A DNA stretch of 32,000 nt from Erysipelotrichaceae bacterium. GTDB lineage: Bacteria > Bacillota_I > Bacilli_A > Erysipelotrichales > Erysipelotrichaceae. The notes beneath the pieces are model-generated. The model was given only the letters and a program-made list of their open reading frames with translations, was not told the origin of the DNA and searched no databases. Where the stretch lies: NCBI GenBank assembly GCA_963663995.1, contig OY760660.1, forward strand, positions 1,890,001-1,922,000, in the 5' to 3' direction. The position numbers and the translations under genes are program-made. The first letter of the stretch is position 1. Each line of letters begins with the position of its first letter. This document shows, piece by piece, positions 13,958 through 30,456 of the stretch.

Positions 13958-16507
13958 TTAAGCTCTCAGTTCAATATCGAAGGACTGGGCACGAGTTGGC
14001 TCAATCATAACTTCACCTTGATTGATTAAATTAATAAAGATATCAGCGAGTTTTGGATCAAACTGTGCTCCAGCATTACGTCTAATTTCTTCTATCGCAT
14101 ATTCAACCGTATGATTGGTTTTATAATGACGATCAGATGTTATCGCATCAAAGGCATCAGCTAAACAAATACATCTTGCCCCAAATGGAATATTTTCTGC
14201 ACATAACTTTCTAGGATAACCGCGTCCATCATAGCGTTCATGATGCCCAATAACGGCTGGGATAACTTTACTAAAGGTTGGTAAGTATTTAATGATGGTG
14301 ACAGATAGATCAACATGTCGTTTCATAACTTCAAATTCTTCATTCGTTAAACGATCTGTCTTTGTTAAGATGTGCTCAGGAATACCAATTTTGCCGATAT
14401 CATGAAGCAAGGATGCTTGACGGATAATTTCAATTTCACTCTCACTAGCACCTGCTGCATGAGCAATTGCAGTCGCATATTTGGCAACCCTTTGTGAATG
14501 ACCAAATGTAATATGATCTTTCGCATCAATTGTTGCGGTTAATGCATAAATTGTCGCCCATTGATTTTCACTTAAATCAAATTCAGCGACGGGAGTTTCA
14601 GCTACTTCATTTGTATAAATGGTTGTTCGATTACGACCATTACGTTTTGAATAGATTAAAGCAGTATTTGCATTTTTTAATAAACTGACGGCTTCACTAC
14701 AGGCACTTGGATAGACACATAAGCCTACAGATACAGAAATATAGCGTTCAGTTTCATTGATGTTAGAGACAGATAAACCTTCAATTTGAGTACGTATCTT
14801 TTCAGCTAAATCATAACTTTGTTTAGTATCAGCACCATTCAGAAGGACACCAAAAATATCACCGGCATATCTAAAGACTAAGGTTGACTCATGAACACTA
14901 CGTTTAATTCGATCAGCGACTTTTGTTAGTACGATATCACCTGCAAGATGACCATAAATATCGTTATAAACAGTTAAGGAATCAATACCAAATAGAGTTA
15001 AAGATAAACTTAATGGTTTAGACTCAACTTGTTTGTTGAGAGCTTCCATGAAATATCGATGATTATAAGTTTGGGTCAATGAATCAGTAATAGCCTCAGT
15101 TTGCGTTCTTTCGAAAAGCAAAGCATTGGTGAGGGCCATTGCCGCAGTTGAACACATTAATTCAATAGATTCAATATGGTTAAAGGCTTCAATAGAACGA
15201 TGATCATTATGACATAAAAGCATGAATCCAATTAAATCATGGTGAACTTTAAGAGGGATCGCAACTTCGAATAATAATTCATTTAAAGAATTAAAATCTT
15301 CTTCCCACATGGATTTAAAGAGTGGATGTTGATAGAGGTCTTCGCCACGAATTGGCGTATCATCATTTTCAAACCACTTTGCAAAGGCGTGATTTAAACT
15401 AAATTGTAATCTCTTTCGCTCTAGTTTTTTAGATGATGCATAACATTCATATTTTTCCTGAACAGTATTTTTCAAGTAAAGATGAATCTTACCGTGTTCT
15501 AAAATGGATTGAGACACTCTAATCAATTCTTCACTAATTTCTTTAGCATTTAAATTATTCGCAACAGATTGAGTGAAATTATGGATTTCTGCTTCTCTTT
15601 TGATTTCATCTTTATAAAAGAATTTATTAATAAGTTTATGTAAAATCATAAAAATAGGTTGGAAAATTAGAATACCGATGACAATAGCTACAACTAACAT
15701 GATGGATTCATCAATACCTGTATTTAATGATTGAAAGAAAGCCCATGCGTTATTCAAAAGAACAGATGTGCCAATCGATAATAATACTAAAGCCACACTT
15801 AAAGTTAATGCTTTCGTAATTACAATCTTTAATTCAATAATACGATTTGCGTAAACAGCTTTCATCATTATAAGCACAGCAATCGACCCAGCAAAGAAGT
15901 CAAAAGGATATTTACCAATAACCGGAACTAGATTAATCCCCATCCCAACAAAGATAATAAATAATGAAATGACAATTTGTTTTAAACCTTTATTGATTGA
16001 AATGGATGATTTAATATGATTACGAGCGATGAGGAAGCACGCCATTAATTGAAGGAATATAATGCCATATGAAACATATGCTCCCCACGTTAATGTGTAG
16101 TTAAGTTGTGTATATGGAGCGACTGATAATGTAACCATTTCAGCTTCTGTCGTCACAAAACCTGTAAAAATTAGTCCGAGAATGAAAACATCTAAAAGCC
16201 CCCAAAGGATTAATGGTAACCAACGTTTTCTCTCGATATATACATTTAAGAAAATATAACTAGCATAGGGTAGAACAGCACTACCTAAAATCATCATATG
16301 ATTATAAAAGAGAGTACCAGGGTAAAAATTAAGTTTCATCAAAAGTGATGATGCTGTCCAAATAGCCATTGAGAAAACAACAAAAGTAAAAGATTTTATG
16401 GTGGCATCTTTCTTCGATAAAACCAGAATGCCTAATAAGCTTAAACTTAAAAGGAATGCAATTGAAGGGAGTCCCCAGTAAAATAGTGTTAAACCATAAT
16501 CACTCAT
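13958..16507 (-). CDS. membrane sensor protein: N-terminal polytopic (7TM-type) domain, GAF-like linker, degenerate GGDEF (AGDIF), HD-GYP c-di-GMP phosphodiesterase domain
   Basis: 849 aa. About 290 aa of TM helices. GGDEF-fold blocks (DSLTQTYNHRYF, GIDSLTVYNDIYGHLAGD), but the signature reads RYAGDIFG. HD-GYP signature is intact (HSQRVA, LLHDIGKIGIP, HHERYDGRGYP). ATGA overlap with the upstream GH3 gene. Confidence 0.9.
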   Translation of the reverse strand: MSDYGLTLFYWGLPSIAFLLSLSLLGILVLSKKDATIKSFTFVVFSMAIWTASSLLMKLNFYPGTLFYNHMMILGSAVLPYASYIFLNVYIERKRWLPLILWGLLDVFILGLIFTGFVTTEAEMVTLSVAPYTQLNYTLTWGAYVSYGIIFLQLMACFLIARNHIKSSISINKGLKQIVISLFIIFVGMGINLVPVIGKYPFDFFAGSIAVLIMMKAVYANRIIELKIVITKALTLSVALVLLSIGTSVLLNNAWAFFQSLNTGIDESIMLVVAIVIGILIFQPIFMILHKLINKFFYKDEIKREAEIHNFTQSVANNLNAKEISEELIRVSQSILEHGKIHLYLKNTVQEKYECYASSKKLERKRLQFSLNHAFAKWFENDDTPIRGEDLYQHPLFKSMWEEDFNSLNELLFEVAIPLKVHHDLIGFMLLCHNDHRSIEAFNHIESIELMCSTAAMALTNALLFERTQTEAITDSLTQTYNHRYFMEALNKQVESKPLSLSLTLFGIDSLTVYNDIYGHLAGDIVLTKVADRIKRSVHESTLVFRYAGDIFGVLLNGADTKQSYDLAEKIRTQIEGLSVSNINETERYISVSVGLCVYPSACSEAVSLLKNANTALIYSKRNGRNRTTIYTNEVAETPVAEFDLSENQWATIYALTATIDAKDHITFGHSQRVAKYATAIAHAAGASESEIEIIRQASLLHDIGKIGIPEHILTKTDRLTNEEFEVMKRHVDLSVTIIKYLPTFSKVIPAVIGHHERYDGRGYPRKLCAENIPFGARCICLADAFDAITSDRHYKTNHTVEYAIEEIRRNAGAQFDPKLADIFINLINQGEVMIEPTRAQSFDIELRA

Positions 16508-19980: not shown

Positions 19981-20373
19981 ATGGGAAGACCAAAAGGAAG
20001 CACAGGAAAAAAATTACATAAATGGACAGTTGAAGAAAAATTAGAGATCGTTAATAAACATTTAATAGATCACATGAGTTATGAGCAAATTAAGATTAAC
20101 TATCAAGTTGGTTTAGCACAAATACATAACTGGGTAAAACAATATCACGAGAACGGAGAAGAAGGACTTCTCCCAAAAGAAAATAAACGTAATATAATGG
20201 CTCATCTATATCGAAAGAAAAACCTAAACAAACTTGAGAAATTAGAACTTGAGAACTTCAAATTAAAACTAGAAGTTGAACGATTAAAAAAAGGTTACAC
20301 AGTGAAAGGAGTTGGTTCAAACAAGGAATACGTTCCTACATCCAAGACGAATATCAAATCATCAAAGAATTAA
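19981..20373 (+). CDS. IS3-family transposase OrfA (HTH + leucine-zipper region)
   Basis: 130 aa. N-terminal HTH (WTVEEKLEIV...GLAQIHNWVKQY) and a heptad-Leu region (LEKLELENFKLKLEVERLKK). The slippery run lies near the 3' part. Confidence 0.85.
   Translation: MGRPKGSTGKKLHKWTVEEKLEIVNKHLIDHMSYEQIKINYQVGLAQIHNWVKQYHENGEEGLLPKENKRNIMAHLYRKKNLNKLEKLELENFKLKLEVERLKKGYTVKGVGSNKEYVPTSKTNIKSSKN
20286..20293 (+). promoter_or_regulatory. programmed -1 ribosomal frameshift site (A AAA AAA G)
   Basis: The run of seven A then G is read in the orfA frame as TTA AAA AAA GGT. Frame -1 is open from here to 21227 and encodes the DDE domain. Confidence 0.7.
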
Positions 20374-21227
20374 GTAATGAGTATTCAGTTGGATTTTTAT
20401 GTGGAGTATTAGATGTCAGTCGTAGTGGTTATTATAAATGGTTAAAACGTTTAGACACACTCAATCGGCATGAACAGAATAGAGAAGATCTTATTAAACT
20501 TATCGAAGAGATACATACAGAACATCCATCATACGGTTATCACGATATAACGGCAGTCATCACTACGCGTACAGGTTGGAAATTATCTGCATTAACGGTA
20601 CATAAAGCCTGTAAAGCGATTGGCGTTAAATCAGAAACTAAGCATTACAAGTGGAAGAAACCAGGAGAAGAACACGTCACTTATAAGAACGTCGTTTCAG
20701 GAAACTGGGAGGTATCTCGACCCTTAGAAATCGTGACGAGCGATATGACTGTACTCACCCATAGAGGAAAACAATATGAGTGGACATTCATCGTTGATGT
20801 GTTCAATAACTCCATCATCGCATCATCACTTAGTTCAAGACGAAATGATAATTCTACCTATTACCATTGTCTTGATCAACTCATTCACATCATCAAAAAA
20901 GAAGAATATTCCGAACCCATCATTTTCCACAGTGACCAAGGTGCAGTTTATTCTTCAAAAGGCTTCCAAGAAGCTCACAAAAATTATAACATTATTCGAT
21001 CTATGTCGCGCGTAGGCACACCAACTGATAACGCAGTTATAGAATCACTTAATGGTTGGATCAAAGCTGAAATAAAATGTGATTATAATCTTAAAGAATG
21101 GGATTCACTTGAAACTTTCATTGATCAATACATAGAGTTCTTTAATAATGAAAGACCAGCTTACAAACTCCAATATAAAACCCCTAACCAATTCTTAATT
21201 GATCAAGGGTTCACTGTTTTTTATTAA
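20292..21227 (+). CDS. IS3-family transposase OrfB part (DDE integrase-like catalytic domain; expressed as OrfAB fusion)
   Basis: My manual translation of frame 3 is open from 20283 onward: ...RLHSERSWFKQGIRSYIQDEYQIIKELSNEYSVGFLCGVLDVSRSGYYKWLKR... It then continues into the tracked ORF. DDE triad candidates are TSDMT, HSDQG and ESLNGW. Confidence 0.85.
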   Translation, partial: RLHSERSWFKQGIRSYIQDEYQIIKELSNEYSVGFLCGVLDVSRSGYYKWLKRLDTLNRHEQNREDLIKLIEEIHTEHPSYGYHDITAVITTRTGWKLSALTVHKACKAIGVKSETKHYKWKKPGEEHVTYKNVVSGNWEVSRPLEIVTSDMTVLTHRGKQYEWTFIVDVFNNSIIASSLSSRRNDNSTYYHCLDQLIHIIKKEEYSEPIIFHSDQGAVYSSKGFQEAHKNYNIIRSMSRVGTPTDNAVIESLNGWIKAEIKCDYNLKEWDSLETFIDQYIEFFNNERPAYKLQYKTPNQFLIDQGFTVFY

Positions 21228-21272: not shown

Positions 21273-22316
21273 TTATTTGAATAATTCAGGATCGAAGGCG
21301 TGACGGACAGCTTCTTCTTTACTAATAATATTTGATTCAAGTAATTTCCTTAAACTTTCGTCCATCGTGATCATGCCATCATCTTTGGAAACTCGGATGG
21401 TCGCATTTAATTGATGTGTTTTACCTTCACGTATTTGATTACGTATGGCGGTGTTGTTGACCATTACTTCAAAGGCAGGGTGAATTTGTTGATCAAGAGT
21501 TGGGACGAGTTGTTGTGATATAACAGTTTGAAGAACCATTGCTAGTTGGATTCGAACTTGGTGTTGTTGTTCAGATGGGAAGACATCAACGATTCGATCA
21601 ATGGTATTACTTGCCCCTAATGTATGAAGAGTTGAGAAAACTAAGTGGCCAGTTTCTGCGGCCGTTAGGGCTAAAGAAATTGTTTCTAAATCACGCATTT
21701 CTCCAACAAATAATACGTCTGGAGATTGTCTTAATGCAGATCTTAAAGCGATGGCTGTGCTTTCACAGTCTGTTCCAATTTCTCTTTGTGTGACAACTGA
21801 TTGATTATGTTTAAATAAGAATTCAATCGGATCATCAATCGTAATAATATGACCTTTTCTTGATTTATTGATTTCAGTTAGAAGCATAGCCATTGTTGTC
21901 GATTTACCACAACCTGCTGGACCACTAACAATCACTAAACCTTTGCTTAATTTCGCAAAACGCATAACATTTTCAGGTACATGCATAATACTAGGCTCAG
22001 GAATATCGAAACGCACAATTCTTAGAACAGCTGCTAAACTCGAACGTTGTGTATAAACATTCGCTCTAAATCTTGCGACATGAGGTATAGAGAATGAAAA
22101 GTCATCATCTCCATTTGTATTCACTTTATCCATAGAACGATTAGCTACTTGATAAATTGTCTTAATCAATTCATAGGTATCATCTGGCATTAAGCGAGCA
22201 CCATCTAATTGTTTGAGCTCGTTTTTTATTTTTAAAGCTAAACTAGTACCAGCAACAATAAAAAGATCGGATGCTCCCAGCAACATAGCTTTTTCAATTA
22301 GTTCATTTAAATTCAT
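21273..22316 (-). CDS. pilT: PilT-family type IV filament ATPase (retraction-class hexameric ATPase)
   Basis: 347 aa, collinear with PilT. GASDLFIVAG, Walker A GPAGCGKST, DDPIEF, GEMRDLETISLALTAAETGHLVFSTLHT and a PilT-type AIRNQIRE motif. It lacks the long N-terminal domains of PilB/GspE. Confidence 0.9.
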   Translation of the reverse strand: MNLNELIEKAMLLGASDLFIVAGTSLALKIKNELKQLDGARLMPDDTYELIKTIYQVANRSMDKVNTNGDDDFSFSIPHVARFRANVYTQRSSLAAVLRIVRFDIPEPSIMHVPENVMRFAKLSKGLVIVSGPAGCGKSTTMAMLLTEINKSRKGHIITIDDPIEFLFKHNQSVVTQREIGTDCESTAIALRSALRQSPDVLFVGEMRDLETISLALTAAETGHLVFSTLHTLGASNTIDRIVDVFPSEQQHQVRIQLAMVLQTVISQQLVPTLDQQIHPAFEVMVNNTAIRNQIREGKTHQLNATIRVSKDDGMITMDESLRKLLESNIISKEEAVRHAFDPELFK

Positions 22317-22759
22317 TATTGACCTCCATATACAGGATCACCATTGAGTGAATAATCTTGAGTATTTATAATACTTAAACGTTTTGATTCCAAAATTAAA
22401 TTTTTATTTTCATGATTAATATCTAATATTACTTTTACCATTTGTGTTTCACTGACAGTCTCGATTGTGATTACATCTTCTTCTTTATCGTAATTCACCA
22501 TCTCTAAATTGTCTATCTTCATTAAGAATTCTTCAAAACTTGACTGTGATTGATAGATTTTATTAACTTCAGCGATTTGCAGATCAGTCTCTTTTTCAAT
22601 CATATATGAATCAGCTACAAAATCCATACTTTTCAAAATGCTGTTATGTGTTTGTCTAACATCGACAAGTAAGACAGATACAACGGAATAAACTAAGATT
22701 AAAATTAGAATAGAGAGTAAGGTTGGTAATCCAAAAGGATTAAATCCACGTTTCTTCAT
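22316..22759 (-). CDS. small bitopic protein, ComGG/minor-pseudopilin-like N-terminus (KKRGFNPFG...)
   Basis: Start set at ATG 22759 (ATGA overlap with the upstream stop). MKKRGFNPFGLPTLLSILILILVY has a basic-Gly-Phe junction followed by a hydrophobic helix but no Glu at +5. The stop overlaps the pilT start (TAATG). Confidence 0.5.
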   Translation of the reverse strand: MKKRGFNPFGLPTLLSILILILVYSVVSVLLVDVRQTHNSILKSMDFVADSYMIEKETDLQIAEVNKIYQSQSSFEEFLMKIDNLEMVNYDKEEDVITIETVSETQMVKVILDINHENKNLILESKRLSIINTQDYSLNGDPVYGGQ

Positions 22760-23118
22760 CGTGACACCCCCACATCCCATGATGTGATCACTTGACCCTC
22801 ATCATCTTTTAGGCTAATACTAATCCAATTGAAATCATTGGTATTTTCTTTATTAAGATAAATGGTATAGATAGGATTTTGATTTGTTCTATTACCACTA
22901 ACATCAAACATAATCGGAACTAATGAACTTTCAGTATTAAGTGTCTCTGATATATTCATCATCTCTGCTTGAATTTTAGATAAAGCCAAATTTTCCTGAT
23001 GTGTTTTATTAGCCAGTAAAAGAAGATAAAATGCAAGGAACAAACCAAAACTTAAAAAGATAACATTCAATATAATCTCTAACATAAAGTTCTTTTGAGG
23101 TTTATTCATATGATTCAC
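22756..23118 (-). CDS. small bitopic protein (120 aa) with an atypical N-terminal ...KNFMLEIILNVIF... helix
   Basis: One N-terminal TM helix, with FMLE reminiscent of but not matching G/FTLxE. Translationally coupled on both sides. The start could be ATG 23109. Confidence 0.5.
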   Translation of the reverse strand: MNHMNKPQKNFMLEIILNVIFLSFGLFLAFYLLLLANKTHQENLALSKIQAEMMNISETLNTESSLVPIMFDVSGNRTNQNPIYTIYLNKENTNDFNWISISLKDDEGQVITSWDVGVSR

Positions 23119-23542
23119 CAGCTTGTACTCGATAATTCAATGTGATGACTTCATTTGCTTCATTAATGTAAGTTATTGTTACTAATTGATTGTCTATTTC
23201 AACTTTAAAATCTTGAACAAAAGCGAGCTCTTCACCATTTCCATAGCGAACAGGATCAATCGAAACTTGTTCCATCAATGATTGATTTTCTTCATAGACT
23301 AAAAGGTAGTAACCATTTAGATCAAAAATTAAGGTTGAATCTTTAACTGACAGTGAGTCTAAAATATCATTTTGTTTGAATCGATTATTAAAATATAATC
23401 GAATACTTCGATCATTTAACTCAATGTCACTTTGAGCTTGAATTTCTTGTGTTAAAGAAGCACCAAAACTAATCAGTAAAGTCGAGGCAAGAACAAGAAC
23501 TAAAATCATCAAAAGGGATAAGGCTGTACTATTTTTTTTCAT
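23102..23542 (-). CDS. small bitopic protein (146 aa), possible minor pseudopilin/assembly factor
   Basis: N-terminal MKKNSTALSLLMILVLVLASTLL helix and a beta-rich C-terminal part. Its size matches ComGD-class proteins, but there is no canonical prepilin motif. It shares a 1-nt overlap (TAATG) with the upstream gene. Confidence 0.5.
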   Translation of the reverse strand: MKKNSTALSLLMILVLVLASTLLISFGASLTQEIQAQSDIELNDRSIRLYFNNRFKQNDILDSLSVKDSTLIFDLNGYYLLVYEENQSLMEQVSIDPVRYGNGEELAFVQDFKVEIDNQLVTITYINEANEVITLNYRVQAGESYE

Positions 23543-23832
23543 TAGTTTTCCCCTCCCAAACGATAGATGTGGATAGTAGGTCTAAGGTTAGAAGCAAAAA
23601 CTTTATAGGTCACAACAAACTTATCATCGACAACTACACCATAATAATTGATTAAATATTCAAGTTGAGCAGGGTAAAAACCTTCTTGTGCATAACAAAG
23701 CGTTAGCGCATTTTGTATCGCTTTTTCTAAACTTTGTTGATTAAGGGCAACTTGATCATTTTCCATTCTACTGATTAGCAGAAAGCTAAGAAGACAAGCA
23801 GCGATAAAAGTTGTTACTGAAGCTTTTTTCAT
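23542..23832 (-). CDS. small pilin-like protein (96 aa) lacking the canonical prepilin cleavage motif
   Basis: An N-terminal hydrophobic helix continues into an amphipathic helix, followed by ...YAQEGFYPAQLEYLINYYGV..., which resembles the alpha-beta loop region of ComGC/major pilins (EGxxPxxLxxLxxxGY). There is no G-F-T-L-x-E. Confidence 0.45.
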   Translation of the reverse strand: MKKASVTTFIAACLLSFLLISRMENDQVALNQQSLEKAIQNALTLCYAQEGFYPAQLEYLINYYGVVVDDKFVVTYKVFASNLRPTIHIYRLGGEN

Positions 23833-23835
23833 TTT

Positions 23836-24858
23836 TTATCCTAAGGTAGACATCACATTTAATAAGGGTAAAATCATTGAGAACACAATCGCAAAAACCA
23901 TTGCAGTCAAACTAGTGATTAACCAAGGTTCAATTCTATTTAAGCTAGAGTTTAATTGATTTTGTGCTCTTTGATTAAGTAAATAAGATAAATCATCAAG
24001 AGCATTTTCAAGTTGTCCAGCTTTTGCGGCAATGTTTAACGTACTTAAATCTATTGATTCATAAAGGGTATTGTTTAACAAGAGTTCATATAAACCTTCA
24101 GAAGGATCAAGTTTAGCTTTAGCTTTGTTGAGTTTTTCTTCAAATTTAACACTTGTATCATTCGCTTTGACCATACTAAGTGCACTTCGATTATCAATAC
24201 CGCCAGATAAAGCTATATACGCCATTGATGTATAATAAGCAACTTGTGAAGTTTCATATGCTTTTGGGAATAATCTTAATAATCGAGTATCCCAAGAAGG
24301 TTGACTTTCTGGTTTTTTTTGATGTTTGATTTCTCCTAGGATAAACCAAAGAGCGATTAAAGCATAGCTAGTCATTAAAGCTATACTAAAGCCTTTTAAA
24401 GCATATAAGAAAGCACGTAAGCTTGCACTTTGAGCGATACCAAGTTGAGTAAAGAGATTTTGAAATATTGGTAGAATGGTGAAAGACATTAAAGTTAAAA
24501 TTATCCCAAAGATCGCTAATAAAATTAATGGCAGGCTCAAGATTTCTTTTAAGAACTGTTGAAGTTCAGATTGACGAGTAAAATGTTTCGCCATTTGTTT
24601 AAAGAGTTTTTCTTCCTGTCCTACTTTTTCAGCAATTACTAATGCATCAATGAAATAGTGTGGGAAAGCAGCATCTTGTTTGAAAACATAACTAAGACTT
24701 GGATTTTCACTAAAATGTGTTTGCCAAGATTTATAGTCATAGATTTCACTTTTTTCAAGTAAACTTAAGCCTTTATCTAGACTAGTACCTGAAGCATACA
24801 AATAACTAAGTTGTTGACATAAAGAGGCAAGTTCTTGTGCAGTATATTGTTTTCTCAT
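23836..24858 (-). CDS. GspF/PilC/ComGB-family type IV filament platform protein
   Basis: 340 aa with two T2SSF-like repeats (cytoplasmic helical bundle then TM). N-terminus ELASLCQQLSYLYASGTSLDKGLSLL; C-terminal TM ILPLLNVMSTLG. The size is ComGB-like. Confidence 0.8.
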   Translation of the reverse strand: MRKQYTAQELASLCQQLSYLYASGTSLDKGLSLLEKSEIYDYKSWQTHFSENPSLSYVFKQDAAFPHYFIDALVIAEKVGQEEKLFKQMAKHFTRQSELQQFLKEILSLPLILLAIFGIILTLMSFTILPIFQNLFTQLGIAQSASLRAFLYALKGFSIALMTSYALIALWFILGEIKHQKKPESQPSWDTRLLRLFPKAYETSQVAYYTSMAYIALSGGIDNRSALSMVKANDTSVKFEEKLNKAKAKLDPSEGLYELLLNNTLYESIDLSTLNIAAKAGQLENALDDLSYLLNQRAQNQLNSSLNRIEPWLITSLTAMVFAIVFSMILPLLNVMSTLG

Positions 24859-24866
24859 AAATCTCC

Positions 24867-25805
24867 TTAATAACGATCTTGGTCTTGATATGACCCATCA
24901 TATTCGCCCATTGAATCAAAAGTTGGATCAACTCTTTTCCATTCATCACTTGCAAAATAAATACTTGGATTTATCCATCCTTGATCATCTAAATAAACTT
25001 CAACCCATGCATGATAACCAACATCCGTCATACCCGTGATAATTCGAGTTGGTATATGTTGTGCTCTAAGCATAGCCGTCATTAATGCAGCATAATCAAA
25101 ACAAATTCCTTTTTGTTGGATATATGTTTCGTCAATGATAGGAAGAATGAATGTTGACTTGGCTACTTCAGCTTTATCGTAATCATAAGTTATATTTTCA
25201 GTGATATAAGTGTATATTTCATAGACTCTTAATAAATCACTATTAGCGTCCTGCGTTAAATTGAATGATTCTAATACAGCTTTTGTATTCGCATCATAGT
25301 CAACCATTTGATTGGGATAAATGTAAGGACTATTTTCATCTTCTAAGTTAACAGTGATATTGGTAGAGGCAAGAATGCTGTAACTTGTACCTTCAATGTT
25401 TTTAAGCGCTCGAATGGTATAGTCGCCATTGCCCAAATGCATAGGAACAATCACATATTCATTCGCATGAAGATCATAAGTATAAGTTTGGTCATTTAGA
25501 ATAACTTGAACTTTTTGTTTGGAAGTACTATCACTCGTTTTGATACTAACATATCCAAAATTCGCATTTGAATAATCAATGCTTATCCCGTTGTTTTCAA
25601 AAAGGGAAGTTCCAGGTTGAGTAGGTAAAAGTAAGTCAGAAAGTTTATACGCTTCAGAGGGTGTTCCCTCTTCTGGATAAGCGCTTGTACTTGCTTGACT
25701 TGGACTTGTTCTTTCTTGAATTGTAGCAGGCTTATCACTACTGCATGCACTTAAGAAAATAACAATGCAGAATAGAATAAGTATATGGCTTATGGGTTTA
25801 TTCAT
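24867..25805 (-). CDS. transglutaminase-like (Cys-His-Asp core) lipoprotein
   Basis: Lipobox FLSAC. The C-terminal core GICFDYAALMTAMLRAQHIPTRIITG...GYHAWVEVYLDDQGWINP...VDPT matches the transglutaminase-core/cysteine-protease fold. Confidence 0.85.
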   Translation of the reverse strand: MNKPISHILILFCIVIFLSACSSDKPATIQERTSPSQASTSAYPEEGTPSEAYKLSDLLLPTQPGTSLFENNGISIDYSNANFGYVSIKTSDSTSKQKVQVILNDQTYTYDLHANEYVIVPMHLGNGDYTIRALKNIEGTSYSILASTNITVNLEDENSPYIYPNQMVDYDANTKAVLESFNLTQDANSDLLRVYEIYTYITENITYDYDKAEVAKSTFILPIIDETYIQQKGICFDYAALMTAMLRAQHIPTRIITGMTDVGYHAWVEVYLDDQGWINPSIYFASDEWKRVDPTFDSMGEYDGSYQDQDRY

Positions 25806-25840: not shown

Positions 25841-25867
25841 AAAAAAAAGAGCCTAAGCGGCTCTTTT
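25841..25867 (-). terminator. rho-independent terminator after the adhesin gene
   Basis: Minus strand reads AAAGAGCC-GCTTA-GGCTCTTT followed by a T run, starting a few nt after TAA 25874-25876. Confidence 0.8.
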
Positions 25868-25873
25868 AACACA

Positions 25874-28800
25874 TTATAGTTCAATAATTGTATTGTATTC
25901 TTCGTCTTGTTCAGCAGGGATTAGAACAGTGTGAACTAAATGACCATGAAGCACGAAGTTAACGGTTAGATTACCTAAGTGTTTTGCGAGACGTTTGTAG
26001 ATTGTTACATCAATTTTGGCAAGATCTACTAAGTTTTTATCATTAAGATCAACAATGAATACAGTTTGATCATCATCAGGTTTTGATAGACGACGTCGTA
26101 ATGTTTTTTCTGTTCCATCCTTAGTGATTAATGTGTATCTAATATTAGGTCTAATAAAGGCTAGAAGAAGTGGAAGTAATCCAAGTAACCAGTATAACCA
26201 ACTAAAGTCCATTGGTAATGCGGCTAGAGGCGTTTCCTCTGGTTCTTCAACCAAGATAACACCTTGTGTCACATCAATCACAACTGAAGCAGTATTTGAA
26301 TCAAGTTCACCATCATTGGCGATGAAGCTAAAGCTATCATTACCAACGAAGCCATCGTTAGGCGTATAAGTAAATGAACCATCATCATTGAAGACTAATG
26401 TACCATTCGAGACGGATGATACTAAAGCAAATGTTAAGGCATCTCCATCAGCATCACTTGCACTTGCTTGACCACTAATAGCTGTTTCAAATTCAGTTGA
26501 GTATGTTCCTGCATTAGCAACTGGAGCTGTATTCAAGGCAGCTAGAGGAGTAGGTGTAGGAACGACTGTAACTGTAACTGGAGGTGTAGTAGGAGGAGTG
26601 GTTGGAGGTGTAACTGGAGGAGCAGGAGGAGCAGTAACAGTAATCGTAACTGTAACTACATTAGAATCATCTTCACCATCATTGGCATGATAAGTAAAGG
26701 TATCTGTTCCAACAAATCCAGCAGTAGGTGTATAAGTAAATGAACCATCAGCGCCTAATACTAAGGCACCATTGACAACATTAACATTTAGAACAGCTGT
26801 TAATGAATCACCTTCAACATCAGTATCATTAGCTAAGACACCAGCAGCAGCGATACTTAAGCTTGCAGTATTAACGACTGTATAAGCTTCAGCAACGGCT
26901 ACAGGGGCATCATTCACTGGAGTTACTGTAATATAAATTGTAGCAACTTCAGAAGTATCAACACCATCACTTACGGTGTAAGTGAATTGATCGTCCCCAA
27001 CGTAATTAGCGTTAGGTGTATAAGTAATTGCTGATCCTGTTCCACTTAGAACACCATTGGTAGGAGCAGTTGTGAGGAATGTTAATTCATCTTCATCAAC
27101 GTCTTCACCAAAGAGGGTAATAAGAAGTGCTGTATCTTCAGGAGTTGTTAACTCTTGACCTTCAGCTACAGGAACATCATTGATAGGATTAACAGTGATT
27201 TCTACAGTTGCGCTAGCACTAATGTTTCCATCAGTAATGCTGTAATCGAAACTATCTAAACCATTGAAATTAGCAGCAGGTGTATAAGTGAAAGAACCAT
27301 CAATATTCATGGATACACTACCACCATTAACACTTGTTGCATCATATGCACTAATTTCTAATGCATCACCATCAACGTCTGAATCATTGTCTATGACTCC
27401 ATTAACAGCCAATACAACCAGAGGCGTATCTTCATCAGTTGAATATTCATCATCAACAGCAACAGGAGCATCATTAATGTTTGTTACATTAATGGTAATC
27501 GTAGCTGCTACTGAACTTAGAACACCATCAAATGTTGTAAAGGTGAATGAATCTTGACCGACAAAATCAGTGTTTGGAGTATAAGTAATTTGATCATCAT
27601 TTAGAATGCTTAAAGTACCATTTGTAGGTTGAGAAGCGATAGCGAATGTAATGCTATCCCCATCAATATCTGAACCAGTTAAGGTAATGAGTAAAGCTGT
27701 TTCTTCAGCTGTATCTACAGTTTGATCATTAGCAGTAGGAGCATCATTTATTGGGTTAACAGCGATTTCAACAATTGCTATATCCGTTAAACTACCATCA
27801 CTAACTGTGTATGTGAATGTATCACTATCTAATCCCACTCCATTAAAGTTTGCAGCAGGTGTATATGTAAATGTACCATCTAAAGCCATCGATACAGTAC
27901 CACCGTTGGTTGTTGTAGTGTCATAAGCACTTACAAATAAACTATCACTATTAGCATCAGTGTCATTGGCTAGAACACTATTAGCAATAAGTACTGTTAA
28001 TGGAGTATCTTCATCAGTAGTATATTCATCATCAACTGCAACTGGAGCAGTATTATTAACTGAAATATAAACAGTAGCTATGTTGGAGTTACTTGTTCCA
28101 TCATAAGCCATATATGTGAAATGGTCTGTACCATTGAAACCTGAATTTGAAGTATAAGTGAATGATCCATCAGCATTTAATGATAATGTACCATTTGAAA
28201 CATTATCAACTAATATAGCAGATAGAGAACTACCTTCAACATCAGTATCATTTCCTAAAATACCAGGAGCTGCTATTGATAGTTCAACAAGTTGAGCAGC
28301 AGTATAATTATCATCTGTGGCAACAGGAGCATCATTGACTGCATTAATAGTAATATTGACAGTCGCTGTATCACTTCCACCATTTCCATCACTGATTGTA
28401 TAAGTATAAGAATCAGTACCATTAAAATCAGAAGCAGGTGTAAAAGTAATTGTATTATCAGCATTAATTACTACTGTACCGTTTGATCCTTGTGTTACTG
28501 AAGAGATTGTTAAAACATCACCATCAATATCAGAATCATTAGCTAATACATTAGTTGTAACTGCAGTATCTTCATCAGTAAAATCTGAATCATCTACAGC
28601 AACAGGAGCATCGTTAATCGGTGTAACTGTAATGTTTACAGTACCAGTAACTGATGTTGTACCATCGCTTAATGTGTATGTAAATGAATCATTCCCATTA
28701 AAATCATCAAAAGGTTCATAACTAAATGATCCGTCAGATCCTAAATAAGTTAGGTCACCATGACTTGGATTAGTACCAGCACTTATTGTTAAAGGATCAC

Positions 28801-29869
28801 CATTTGGATCACTGTCATTAATTAATAAATGATTTACATCAGAATTTGTAACTTTTAATAATCCATCTTCGTCTACGGTATAAGTATCTGTGCCAGCCAC
28901 AGGACTGTTGTTTGTAACAAGAATAGTAACAGTTGCTTCATTAGAATCAGCAGTACCATCATTTGCTATATATTTGAAAGTAACAGTTCCGTCAAATCCC
29001 ACTGAAGGAGTATAATCAAAAGAACCATTACTATTAAGTATTAATGTTCCATTTGCGGGATCACTTACTTTTGTCGATGTAAGTACTGTTCCTAAATCAA
29101 CATCACTATCATTTCCTAAAACACCACTTGCAACAATTGATAATGTTGTGTTTTTAACCAATGTGTAAGAATCATCAACAGCTACTGGTACATCATTTAC
29201 AGGTGTTACTGTAATTGTGACAGTAGCAGTATTTGAATCGACATGTCCATCATTTGCTGTGTATGTAAAACTATCTGTTCCATTATAATTTGCGTTTGGT
29301 GTATATGTGAATGAACCATCAGCATTTAATGACAAACTACCATTAGTGGTATTGCTAACAAGAACCGCTGTTAAAGGGTCAACATCTCCACTTACATCAT
29401 TAGCTAGAACACCTGGCATAGAAATTGTTAATGGAGTATCTTCAAGTGTTGCATACGTATCAGGATTAGCTATCGGAACTGTATTTATACGATAAACTGC
29501 TGAAATACCAACGAATTTCACATTAGTATTTGCAGGTTGTTCATATATTACAACCTCGACAAAGAATCCCAAAAATACATAACCTGAATATTCAAGTGCT
29601 GTAACTTCTGGGAAATTATCTCGAACGAAATTATCGGCATTTGATCCAACAGTTAGACCAGAACTTGTCCATAAAGTATCTAGTTCATTTAAATAATGAT
29701 ATTCATAATTGCCATTTCCTTGACCATTATTTATTGAGTCATCAATACTAATATGAATTTCTAATGTTGGAGAATTTTGAGAAGCTAATATTGGTGTTAT
29801 GTTCCAGGAACTAAACGTAAGTGTGAAAACCATTAAGATTTTCGAAATTCTAGTAATTGTTTTTATCAT
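25874..29869 (-). CDS. giant surface protein: signal peptide, ~100-aa N-domain, 11 cadherin/Ig-like (VCBS / Big_9-type) repeats, P/T-rich linker, C-terminal TM helix and 92-aa cytoplasmic tail
   Basis: 1331 aa. The repeats follow the pattern NDAPVAVDDxYTTDEDTPL...VLANDTDVDGD.LT...NGT...NADGSFTYTP...F.GTDSFTYT..DG...SN.ATV.ITV.P. SD AGGAGGA lies 7 nt upstream. Confidence 0.85.
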   Translation of the reverse strand: MIKTITRISKILMVFTLTFSSWNITPILASQNSPTLEIHISIDDSINNGQGNGNYEYHYLNELDTLWTSSGLTVGSNADNFVRDNFPEVTALEYSGYVFLGFFVEVVIYEQPANTNVKFVGISAVYRINTVPIANPDTYATLEDTPLTISMPGVLANDVSGDVDPLTAVLVSNTTNGSLSLNADGSFTYTPNANYNGTDSFTYTANDGHVDSNTATVTITVTPVNDVPVAVDDSYTLVKNTTLSIVASGVLGNDSDVDLGTVLTSTKVSDPANGTLILNSNGSFDYTPSVGFDGTVTFKYIANDGTADSNEATVTILVTNNSPVAGTDTYTVDEDGLLKVTNSDVNHLLINDSDPNGDPLTISAGTNPSHGDLTYLGSDGSFSYEPFDDFNGNDSFTYTLSDGTTSVTGTVNITVTPINDAPVAVDDSDFTDEDTAVTTNVLANDSDIDGDVLTISSVTQGSNGTVVINADNTITFTPASDFNGTDSYTYTISDGNGGSDTATVNITINAVNDAPVATDDNYTAAQLVELSIAAPGILGNDTDVEGSSLSAILVDNVSNGTLSLNADGSFTYTSNSGFNGTDHFTYMAYDGTSNSNIATVYISVNNTAPVAVDDEYTTDEDTPLTVLIANSVLANDTDANSDSLFVSAYDTTTTNGGTVSMALDGTFTYTPAANFNGVGLDSDTFTYTVSDGSLTDIAIVEIAVNPINDAPTANDQTVDTAEETALLITLTGSDIDGDSITFAIASQPTNGTLSILNDDQITYTPNTDFVGQDSFTFTTFDGVLSSVAATITINVTNINDAPVAVDDEYSTDEDTPLVVLAVNGVIDNDSDVDGDALEISAYDATSVNGGSVSMNIDGSFTYTPAANFNGLDSFDYSITDGNISASATVEITVNPINDVPVAEGQELTTPEDTALLITLFGEDVDEDELTFLTTAPTNGVLSGTGSAITYTPNANYVGDDQFTYTVSDGVDTSEVATIYITVTPVNDAPVAVAEAYTVVNTASLSIAAAGVLANDTDVEGDSLTAVLNVNVVNGALVLGADGSFTYTPTAGFVGTDTFTYHANDGEDDSNVVTVTITVTAPPAPPVTPPTTPPTTPPVTVTVVPTPTPLAALNTAPVANAGTYSTEFETAISGQASASDADGDALTFALVSSVSNGTLVFNDDGSFTYTPNDGFVGNDSFSFIANDGELDSNTASVVIDVTQGVILVEEPEETPLAALPMDFSWLYWLLGLLPLLLAFIRPNIRYTLITKDGTEKTLRRRLSKPDDDQTVFIVDLNDKNLVDLAKIDVTIYKRLAKHLGNLTVNFVLHGHLVHTVLIPAEQDEEYNTIIEL
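26270..29485 (-). repeat. in-frame tandem array of ~95-100-codon divergent repeats (11 units; a P/T linker precedes the last)
   Basis: I counted repeat-initiating (N)D/T-(A/V/S)P(V/I/T)A motifs at 11 positions. The DNA copies are diverged rather than identical. Confidence 0.8.
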
Positions 29870-29885
29870 AAAATTGTCCTCCTTT

Positions 29886-29992
29886 TTGAAAATAAAATGA
29901 CCGGTTTTCTGCTAAGTGCAGTTGACCGGTCATAGATTACTCTTTAGACGCCTAACTTTGTGCCCCAAGTTTTCACTTGGTTTACCTTTTGA
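29886..29992 (-). promoter_or_regulatory. candidate c-di-GMP class I (GEMM-I) riboswitch, promoter-distal (gene-proximal) copy, with its own terminator
   Basis: Minus-strand RNA: AAAAGGUAAACCAAGUGAAAACUUGGGGCACAAAGUUAGGCGUCUAAAGAGUAAUCUAUGACCGGUCAACUGCACUUAGCAGAAAACCGGUCAUUUUAUUUU. This parallels the Vc2-type core GGCAAACC-stem-GAAA-stem-GGGACGCAAAGCC. The terminator is ATGACCGG...CCGGTCAT plus a U run, followed by the SD and ATG 29869. Confidence 0.62.
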
Positions 29993-30065
29993 CAAAGACG
30001 ATTTACTTTTTAATACCTTTTCTCAAATAATAATCTCCTTTAGAGGAATTAAGACATTCTTTTTT

Positions 30066-30172
30066 AATAAAAAATGACCAGTCCTCTGCTATGTGCAGTT
30101 GACCGGTCATAGATTACTCTTTAGACGCCTAACTTTGTGCCCCAAGCTTTCACTTGGTTTACCATTTTACAT
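30066..30172 (-). promoter_or_regulatory. candidate c-di-GMP class I (GEMM-I) riboswitch, promoter-proximal copy, with its own terminator
   Basis: Segment 30071-30163 differs from 29894-29986 at 5 of 93 positions. It has the same aptamer core (GGUAAACCAAGUGAAAGCUUGGGGCACAAAGUU...). The terminator is AUGACCGGUC...GACUGGUCAU followed by UUUUUU. Confidence 0.62.
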
Positions 30173-30184
30173 ATTGGTGTTTAC

Positions 30185-30213
30185 ATGATACACGATATAT
30201 GTTCTTATATCAA
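30185..30213 (-). promoter_or_regulatory. putative sigma-A promoter for the tandem-riboswitch leader
   Basis: Minus strand reads TTGATA, a 17-nt spacer, then TATCAT, about 15-20 nt upstream of the first aptamer. Confidence 0.4.
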
Positions 30214-30351
30214 TTTATCATTAATTTCTATGCATAAATACATTGATATATACTATGTACTTAAATTATAGAACTTTAAAATTCTAAGTCAATAATACTG
30301 CTCATGAACTTTTTGTCACAAACATATTAGATTAATAAAAATCAATAAAAT

Positions 30352-30382: not shown

Positions 30383-30456
30383 TGGCAGGGGTAGTAGGAG
30401 TTGAACCCACATTATTGGTTTTGGAGACCAGTGCTCTACCATTGAACTATACCCCT
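30383..30456 (-). tRNA. trnW: tRNA-Trp (anticodon CCA), CCA end encoded
   Basis: The reverse complement AGGGGTATAGTTCAATGGTAGAGCACTGGTCTCCAAAACCAATAATGTGGGTTCAACTCCTACTACCCCTGCCA folds as a cloverleaf. It has a 7-bp acceptor stem, anticodon loop CUCCAAA and a GGTTCAACTCC T-arm. Confidence 0.9.

Follow-up and report, generated by a model that had tools for sequence, protein, structure and literature searches.

Tandem class I c-di-GMP riboswitches, each with its own terminator, predicted to control a cadherin-like repeat surface protein gene in an Erysipelotrichaceae bacterium

The window, by which we mean the whole 32,000-nt stretch of DNA that was analyzed, carries on its minus strand a gene for a large repeat-containing surface protein. 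[quoted passage not shown] The features of the region, from the upstream tRNA gene to the end of that cluster, are as follows.

30456-30383: tRNA-Trp, upstream of the candidate promoter
30371-30354: terminator-like hairpin of the tRNA-Trp gene
30265..30292, minus strand: candidate sigma-70-type promoter, TTGACT-16 nt-TATAAT (consensus scan, 11/12 matches, pattern only)
30213-30185, minus strand: weaker alternative promoter, TTGATA-17-TATCAT (pattern match)
30091..30173, minus strand: aptamer of unit 1, c-di-GMP-I (GEMM-I) (RF01051, 62.0 bits, E 5.1e-10, model positions 1-87 of 87)
30064..30110, minus strand: expression platform of unit 1, with hairpin 30110-30074 and a U-run (UUUUU A UU) from 30073 (folding)
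29997..30063, minus strand: non-repeated spacer of 67 nt between the units (identity drop outside the 113-nt repeat)
29914..29996, minus strand: aptamer of unit 2, c-di-GMP-I (RF01051, 61.6 bits, E 6.4e-10, model positions 1-87 of 87)
29887..29933, minus strand: expression platform of unit 2, with hairpin 29933-29897 and then UUU A UUUU (folding, inverted repeat I2)
G30147/A29970, A30092/T29915, GG30084-30083/AA29907-29906 and T30080/C29903, minus strand: differences between unit 1 and unit 2 (pairwise alignment)
29867..29882, minus strand: ribosome binding site GGAGG (29882-29878) and ATG (29869-29867), outside the terminator hairpin (sequence, ORF list)
25874..29869, minus strand: regulated gene, 1331-aa surface protein (ORF list, Pfam, translation)
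25845..25867, minus strand: terminator-like hairpin of 9 pairs and then a U-run, directly 3' of the adhesin stop codon (consensus scan, pattern only)
21273..25805, minus strand: downstream same-strand cluster (Pfam Transglut_core, T2SSF, T2SSE)

The 1331-aa protein matches the Pfam family Big_9 (E 2.5e-224) in 11 stretches, together with Cadherin_5 and Cadherin_4. It is laid out as a signal-peptide-like N-terminus, 11 Big_9/cadherin-like repeats, a Pro/Thr-rich linker and a single C-terminal hydrophobic helix with a tail of about 100 aa behind it, and its translation contains no LPXTG motif. An earlier note on this DNA had placed the RNA segments in front of a giant adhesin gene; a large repeat surface protein is indeed encoded there, but 1331 aa does not warrant the word giant. 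Further along the strand, the downstream cluster encodes a transglutaminase-like protein, a ComGB/PilC-like platform protein, four small proteins with hydrophobic N-termini and a PilT/PilU-family ATPase (NCBIfam TIGR01420, 395 bits against a cut-off of 319), and the same gene order occurs at three further loci (L081, L083 and L084). The adhesin gene is certainly the target of the switch. The terminator-like hairpin behind its stop codon suggests that it would be the main regulated unit and that the genes downstream would depend on read-through, by which the cluster is possibly co-regulated. Because a GGDEF plus HD-GYP protein is also encoded in the window, 13 kb away and syntenic in L081, the organism should be able both to make and to degrade c-di-GMP.

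A search of the complete window with the Rfam 15 models, using their gathering thresholds, gave three matches, namely tRNA-Trp and two full-length matches to RF01051. The two units score 62.0 and 61.6 bits against the RF01051 gathering score of 35 bits, with E of about 5e-10 in the whole window and so well outside what chance would give. Both copies thus pass the check that the earlier note had proposed, and a model built in this analysis (R1) scores unit 1 at 104.3 bits and unit 2 at 103.9 bits. A third, degenerate unit further upstream was considered and rejected, since R1 matches only these two in the window at E-values up to 1. For comparison with the archetype Vc2 we took Vc2 numbering from Rfam model positions 11, 38, 83, 35 and 74, using a constant offset of 9 inferred from the model consensus. 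The cmscan alignment, read together with the sequence, assigns the ligand-contacting residues G20, A47 and C92 of Vc2, whose roles have been described along with that of the C44-G83 pair (PMC6140456, PMC4744006), to G30163, A30136 and C30095 in unit 1 and to G29986, A29959 and C29918 in unit 2. The interhelical pair C44-G83 has its equivalents in C30139-G30104 (unit 1) and C29962-G29927 (unit 2), and both units have a GAAA tetraloop (30151-30148 in unit 1) and the receptor-like UCUAAAG/CUAUGAC. Family membership and the contact nucleotides bear out the previous suggestion that the segments parallel the class I aptamer core.

Both units are members of the class I c-di-GMP aptamer family. Relatives that sense cGAMP have an A at position 20 (PMC6140456). 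Neither unit has an A at the equivalent of Vc2 G20, the criterion for cGAMP-sensing GEMM-Ib; both have G (30163 and 29986). The ligand to be expected is therefore c-di-GMP, and judging by their sequences both units would bind it. The P1 helix has five pairs in unit 1 and is weaker in unit 2, where it is reduced to two conserved pairs (GU/AC), an inequality of sequence that may make the two units non-equivalent.

The repeat search assigned the segments to a direct-repeat family of 113 nt with copies at 29882-29994 and 30059-30171 (91% identity, spacing 177), and both the search and the alignment show identity between the copies falling steeply outside these functional 113 nt. Pairwise alignment of the minus-strand 93-nt cores (30163-30071 and 29986-29894) gives exactly five differences, the number previously counted. 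One, G30147/A29970, affects the closing pair of the GAAA tetraloop, which is U.G in unit 1 and U-A in unit 2, and the other four lie in the hairpin loop, the internal loop or the 3' arm; the earlier note had described the first change in the same way and had correctly confined the rest to the 3' arm or loop of the terminators. Differences thus occupy 1 of 73 aptamer positions and 4 of the 20 remaining positions, a split that a uniform distribution would rarely produce (Fisher p = 0.007). According to the ORF list, no ORF of at least 80 aa overlaps the repeat region on either strand, and a protein-coding explanation for the repeats was rejected on this ground. We also rejected an assembly artefact, given that the copies differ at five positions, that their flanks differ and that the layout recurs in two related loci (L082 and L085).

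Folding predicts a hairpin and a following U-run in each unit. The hairpin of unit 1, which reads AUGACCGGUC..CUGC-loop-GCAG..GACUGGUCAU and then UUUUUAUU, has a minimum free energy (MFE) of -22.6 kcal/mol (z = -7.6 vs shuffles), while that of unit 2, reading AUGACCGGU...CUGC-loop-GCAG...ACCGGUCAU and then UUUAUUUU, has one of -19.7 kcal/mol (z = -7.2 vs shuffles). Each aptamer therefore has a separate expression platform, and the two hairpin plus U-run elements, with z of about -7, agree with the previous claim that each unit has its own terminator. A consensus terminator scan missed both of them because their stems have internal loops, and folding was used instead. The hairpin's 5' arm and inner stem (AUGACCGGUC AA CUGC) coincide with aptamer model positions 68-83. 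These positions take in the UAUG on the receptor side, the second helix's 3' strand and the C that pairs with the ligand. The overlap in AUGACCGGUC is real, as the earlier note had it in saying that the aptamer 3' region doubles as the terminator 5' arm, and because the same strand serves both structures, the aptamer and terminator folds are mutually exclusive.

With the aptamer pairs enforced and no ligand present, the two units are 19.0 and 19.1 kcal/mol less stable than the MFE terminator fold, by nearest-neighbour energies that leave out tertiary contacts and co-transcriptional kinetics. Because of this gap of about 19 kcal/mol, termination is the predicted default. Capture of the ligand during transcription would prevent formation of a terminator that uses the aptamer's 3' strand, which makes each unit a predicted ON switch. 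The class alone does not allow the direction to be assumed, since most of the class I c-di-GMP riboswitches of C. difficile turn expression OFF (PMC6200980), and it is taken here from the terminator overlap. The overlap and the modeled energy gap support the ON switch proposed earlier, and the direction in vivo is probably ON. Control is predicted to be transcriptional, because both the GGAGG (29882-29878) and the ATG (29869) of the adhesin gene fall outside all predicted helices of unit 2.

The two aptamers belong to the same class, lie on the same strand within one leader, 177 nt apart, and have no gene between them. No ORF of at least 80 aa was found between the units, where the spacer has only a 7-codon mini-ORF, and a consensus scan, which is a weak test, found no promoter-like site on the minus strand of the spacer (30063-29997). 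Read from its sequence, the spacer holds an SD-like AAAGGAG together with this mini-ORF, which starts at UUG. The candidate sigma-70-type promoter lies between the terminator-like hairpin of tRNA-Trp and unit 1. From this layout both units would be co-transcribed from one promoter, and we infer that they operate independently of each other.

Relatives of the transglutaminase-like protein of the window were found in Erysipelotrichaceae-like bacteria (Erysipelotrichaceae, Anaerorhabdus). At the closest of these loci, L081, the protein is 75% identical and the contig end cuts the adhesin gene before the leader. The next, L082 (71% identical), has a tandem pair of 65.2 and 62.2 bits, 172 nt apart, directly upstream of the orthologous Big_9 adhesin gene, and L083 (67% identical) has one unit of 64.4 bits upstream of the orthologous Big_9 adhesin gene. 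A metagenome contig, L085, carries a tandem pair (63.1 and 62.3 bits) in front of the gene for a further Big_9/cadherin-repeat protein.

Covariation was assessed over the seven units at these four loci (the window, L082, L083 and L085). In the aptamer fold 98.1% of cells are paired, compared with 21-39% in slid controls, and five pairs have changed on both sides. The terminator folds in 7/7 units on the same shared 5' arm; its covariation was tabulated from the per-unit folds, the MAFFT alignment having put the terminator 3' arms out of register. At model position 80, which takes part in both structures, C has changed to U in two units, and the terminator partner has changed from G to A in both. 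The aptamer partner has changed from G to A in one of the two and is kept as G in the other, giving U.G. Such a pattern at a shared position is what would be expected if both alternative structures were under selection.

The two aptamers of the window are 96% identical to each other and 82-90% identical to the units of L082 and L083, while identity within the pairs of L082 and L085 is 86-87%. A comparison of unit identities between the window and its relatives gave no clear first-to-first or second-to-second orthology. As read from the sequences, this history would fit gene conversion between the copies and repeated duplication equally. A scan of species-representative genomes covered 80 transglutaminase loci across Bacillota, mostly at no more than 57% identity, and found c-di-GMP-I aptamers in two (L023 and L026). 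Sensitivity was adequate because the model recovered 106 matches in the control set, and because only these two of 80 loci have an aptamer, we consider the aptamer link to be lineage-specific and not general to the gene cluster. A metagenome scan with the core pattern returned at least 120 stretches, nearly all from unrelated lineages, with L085 as the only close relative. More than one aptamer was present in 5 of 99 unrelated metagenome loci chosen by core pattern alone, in agreement with published records of tandem c-di-GMP-I riboswitches.

Taken together, it is highly probable that two complete class I c-di-GMP ON riboswitches in series, each with a terminator, gate the adhesin gene. Membership of the aptamer family, the terminators, the mutually exclusive pairing and the conservation with covariation are shown by the sequences; the course of events in the cell is proposed as follows. 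In each unit about 14 nucleotides on the 3' side of the aptamer would also build the 5' arm and inner stem of the terminator; they include the second helix's 3' strand, the C pairing with one of the ligand's guanines and the beginning of P1. When c-di-GMP is absent, the far more stable terminator would form and transcription would stop. Binding of c-di-GMP during transcription would hold the shared nucleotides in the aptamer, so that no terminator could form and the polymerase would read on. The transcript would reach the adhesin gene only after passing both checkpoints, with the result that the basal leak would be multiplied down and the response to c-di-GMP somewhat sharpened. High c-di-GMP, as in the sessile or adhesive state, would thus turn on the large surface protein with its cadherin-like repeats, and read-through might extend this to the transglutaminase and type IV filament-type genes next to it.

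The effect of two checkpoints can be illustrated with a toy model of independent hyperbolic ON units in series. In this model basal read-through is squared (from 10% to 1%, for example), and the 10-90% response range, 81-fold for one unit, narrows to some 40-50-fold, which corresponds to an apparent Hill coefficient of about 1.1-1.2. The main benefit of the tandem is therefore likely, in the model, to be stringency; the steeper response that the earlier note had expected is only modest.

Several other explanations bear on how many of the units act, and on what. Only one unit might be functional, the other being a redundant copy from recent duplication or gene conversion with no regulatory effect. 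The closeness of the two aptamers, which exceeds that to the units of any relative, fits a young duplicate or homogenisation, and both the single unit of L083 and the weaker P1 of unit 2 point the same way. Against this, the RF01051 scores are alike, every contact nucleotide and a strong terminator are kept in both units, and an intact terminator in a leader affects transcription whether it is needed or not. The tandem pairs of L082 and L085 are also far enough diverged within each pair to indicate that the tandem state persists, and the steep drop in identity beyond 113 nt disfavors a very recent simple duplication. We regard a single functional unit as unlikely. Alternatively, the units might not be in series, if a promoter in the spacer gave unit 2 its own transcript and unit 1 regulated something else or nothing. 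Promoter-like hexamers are frequent in this AT-rich genome (11 found in the region vs 6.9 expected), but none was detected on the minus strand of the spacer, the spacer has just the 7-codon mini-ORF, and the back-to-back layout is repeated in L082 and L085, which leaves this arrangement with hardly any credibility.

Other alternatives concern ligand and mode of action. The units could respond to 3'3'-cGAMP (GEMM-Ib) or belong to the c-di-GMP-I-GGC variant class. At a permissive threshold with clan competition, unit 2 is indeed placed under RF03167 (c-di-GMP-I-GGC; E 1.2e-11) while unit 1 stays under RF01051, but the RF03167 score of unit 2, 53.2 bits, is below the gathering score of 59, whereas its RF01051 score of 61.6 bits is above the threshold of 35. 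As both units also have G rather than A at position 20, with canonical A47 and C92, another ligand is very unlikely. The units could also be OFF switches, or act on translation or RNA stability rather than on transcription termination. The predominance of OFF switches among class I units in C. difficile gives this some footing, in that the aptamer class does not fix the direction. With the terminator 5' arm inside the aptamer, however, the ligand can only disfavor the terminator; no separate antiterminator element is evident, and the GGAGG and AUG are free of all predicted unit 2 helices. Induction of an adhesin by high c-di-GMP also fits known biology (PMC4933901, PMC6200980), and we consider an OFF switch or a non-transcriptional mode extremely improbable. 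Two ON riboswitches acting in series on transcription of the adhesin gene thus remain our preferred explanation.

A broader and rather doubtful idea is that the tandem switch, more than being a further tandem riboswitch, feeds c-di-GMP signals into a module for adhesin display in Bacillota that has yet to be characterised, in which variable cargo genes lie upstream of a conserved set. This set may consist of the transglutaminase-fold (Cys-His-Asp) enzyme, the PilC/ComGB-like platform, the four pilin-like proteins and the PilT-family ATPase. The cargo would be Big_9/cadherin-repeat proteins, which are encoded in the window, L082, L083 and L085, and thioester-domain proteins, which are encoded in L023, and each cargo gene may be gated by one or two c-di-GMP-I ON switches. 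In a loose parallel to LapG of the Gram-negative LapD/LapG circuit, the adhesin might be processed, cross-linked or released by the transglutaminase-like enzyme. If such a module exists, the differences between the units in P1 length and terminator strength could set two thresholds.

For annotation, the tandem riboswitches predict that in this uncultured bacterium the cadherin-like repeat surface protein is made only at high c-di-GMP and that its basal expression is kept very low by the two checkpoints. The known link between c-di-GMP-I tandems, adhesins and transglutaminase-like genes is extended by this locus to a further Gram-positive lineage, probably one that is gut- or anaerobe-associated. 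Knowledge of riboswitch architecture is left unchanged, as bacterial examples of the arrangement have been well described.

No other known tandem class is as numerous as that of the c-di-GMP-I riboswitches, which were counted as 347 doublets and 12 triplets and have been filed under multiple expression platforms with pseudo-cooperative behavior (Sherlock et al. 2022, PMC9481103); 'TPP' tandems appear in Table 1 of the same work (PMC9481103). A 2025 survey found COG1305 transglutaminase-like genes of Bacillota to be significantly associated with tandem c-di-GMP-I riboswitches, 94% of them doublets (PMC12452182). The window shares its architecture class with the catalogued doublets and has a transglutaminase-like gene in its cluster as well. 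It differs from the catalogued tandems in gene order, since the switches are followed first by the adhesin gene and then, beyond a terminator-like hairpin, by the transglutaminase-like gene.

In C. difficile, riboswitches of the c-di-GMP-II class precede pilA1 and adhesin genes and turn expression on at high c-di-GMP by relieving termination (PMC6200980). The window would be similar in being a Gram-positive case in which high c-di-GMP turns on adhesin or type IV pilus genes, but the class II aptamer is non-homologous, and the class I units of C. difficile are mostly OFF switches. With Vc2 of Vibrio cholerae, the GEMM-I archetype, the units have in common G20, A47, C92, the C44-G83 pair, the GAAA tetraloop and the CUAA/UAUG receptor-like sequences. 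The pair beside G20 is U-A in the window where the Rfam consensus has C-G, a compensated change, and in contrast to Vc2 the distal helix is shorter (four model positions deleted), P1 is short and the platform is a terminator. A tandem of another class, the TPP arrangement of Bacillus anthracis, reportedly consists of two complete independent riboswitches in series for one and the same ligand, which give a sharper response than one (Welz and Breaker 2007). It differs from the window in its ligand and in its OFF logic.

In Bacillus thuringiensis, the class I riboswitch Bc2 lies upstream of the collagen adhesin gene cap/cbpA (PMC4933901, PMC7423583). The window resembles it in having a class I aptamer and, as predicted here, terminator-based ON control of an adhesin gene, but Bc2 is a single unit and its adhesin belongs to a different family. 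The earlier note had cited a tandem upstream of an adhesin gene in the Bacillus cereus group; such a tandem is known, but it is a triplet in front of cspABCDE, an operon for surface proteins, whereas only one riboswitch precedes the collagen-adhesin gene (PMC4759541, PMC4933901). [quoted passage not shown] 2016, PMC4759541). The window differs from it in having two units, in its lineage, which is Erysipelotrichaceae-like to judge from protein relatives, and in its target, a Big_9/cadherin-repeat protein whose gene precedes a transglutaminase and type IV filament-type cluster. Both place complete class I units of high mutual similarity with ON logic, predicted in our case, in one 5' UTR upstream of surface-protein genes. 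In both, each unit has a terminator of its own to which the ligand-site C, P1 and a portion of the last helix contribute nucleotides, and the logic of Bc4 is the same. The stringency obtained from our toy model likewise agrees with the 'more stringent and digital' behavior measured for Bc3-5 (PMC4759541).

The leader that carries the two tandem c-di-GMP-I riboswitch units of the adhesin gene is bordered and interspersed by four further features of the window.

30383-30456, minus strand: tRNA-Trp (CCA) gene, directly upstream of the adhesin leader
30371-30354, minus strand: terminator-like hairpin belonging to the tRNA-Trp gene
30206-30250: 13-nt inverted repeat, TATATCAATTTAT / ATACATTGATATA, with arms 92% complementary and 19 nt apart
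~30003-30038, minus strand: Shine-Dalgarno-like AAAGGAG in the spacer between the units, followed 8 nt on by a UUG-initiated mini-ORF of seven codons (MRKGIKK)

The upstream neighbours of the leader are different at two relatives' loci with a related transglutaminase-like gene, L082 (a tandem riboswitch pair) and L083 (a single unit), and the upstream junction is therefore not conserved. The inverted repeat, which lies upstream of unit 1 and downstream of the best promoter candidate, could be an operator, a leader hairpin or a chance occurrence in AT-rich DNA. The spacer motif and its mini-ORF may be a relic of a duplicated unit that included a ribosome-binding site; AGGAGG also occurs in the spacer of L082, but no start codon there is suitably spaced from it.

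At its other end, the adhesin gene is adjoined by a compact type IV filament-like cluster, and the window holds the following features on that side.

25845-25867, minus strand: terminator-like hairpin of 9 pairs with a U-run, directly 3' of the adhesin stop codon
21273-25805, minus strand: the cluster, encoding a transglutaminase-like protein, a ComGB/PilC-like protein, four small proteins and a PilT/PilU-family ATPase
19981-21227, plus strand: insertion-sequence remnant with two ORFs, one HTH_28/HTH_Tnp_1 and the other a truncated rve integrase core (GTG start)
13958-16507, minus strand: 849-aa protein with GGDEF and HD-GYP-type (HD_5) domains

The hairpin lies 40 nt upstream of the transglutaminase-like gene, with no promoter-like site seen between the two, and this layout suggests that read-through from the adhesin gene into the machinery genes would be attenuated. 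Such attenuated read-through is frequent downstream of major pilin genes. Residues C235, H265 and D293 of the transglutaminase-like protein are invariant in 25 homologues, and all four small proteins have hydrophobic N-termini, including KNFMLEIIL in one and KRGFNPFGLPTLL in another. Neither a prepilin peptidase nor a PilB-type assembly ATPase was seen within the cluster. The insertion-sequence remnant sits just past the pilT-like gene and is missing from the corresponding place in L081, another of the relatives' loci. The gene for the GGDEF/HD_5 protein is syntenic with the adhesin gene and the pilus-type cluster, and its L081 counterpart is also annotated with a HisKA_7TM sensor domain; the window's protein may be what supplies or removes the c-di-GMP signal.

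Related transglutaminase loci number at least 594 in Bacillota genomes. At one of the 80 that were scanned for c-di-GMP-I aptamers, from an Oscillospiraceae MAG (L023, 179-10885, plus strand), four successive genes, each with an aptamer of its own (76-81 bits), stand directly upstream of the same transglutaminase and T2SSF-type cluster as in the window, and three of these four genes encode thioester-domain (TED) proteins.

Multi-copy arrangements were also found in unrelated metagenome contigs selected by the c-di-GMP-I core pattern alone, and tandems are therefore common for this class.

L171, 18-2577, plus strand: four c-di-GMP-I copies
L102, 668-907, minus strand: c-di-GMP-I doublet
L127, 3977-4324, minus strand: c-di-GMP-I doublet
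L138, 117-399, plus strand: c-di-GMP-I doublet

In a further metagenome locus chosen by this pattern (L169, 1598-1840, plus strand), two aptamers (71.0 and 68.6 bits) are separated by just 8 nt and followed by a single GC-rich hairpin with a U-run; the adjacent aptamers appear to have one common expression platform. While the window has two complete units, L169 thus apparently has one expression platform for two aptamers.
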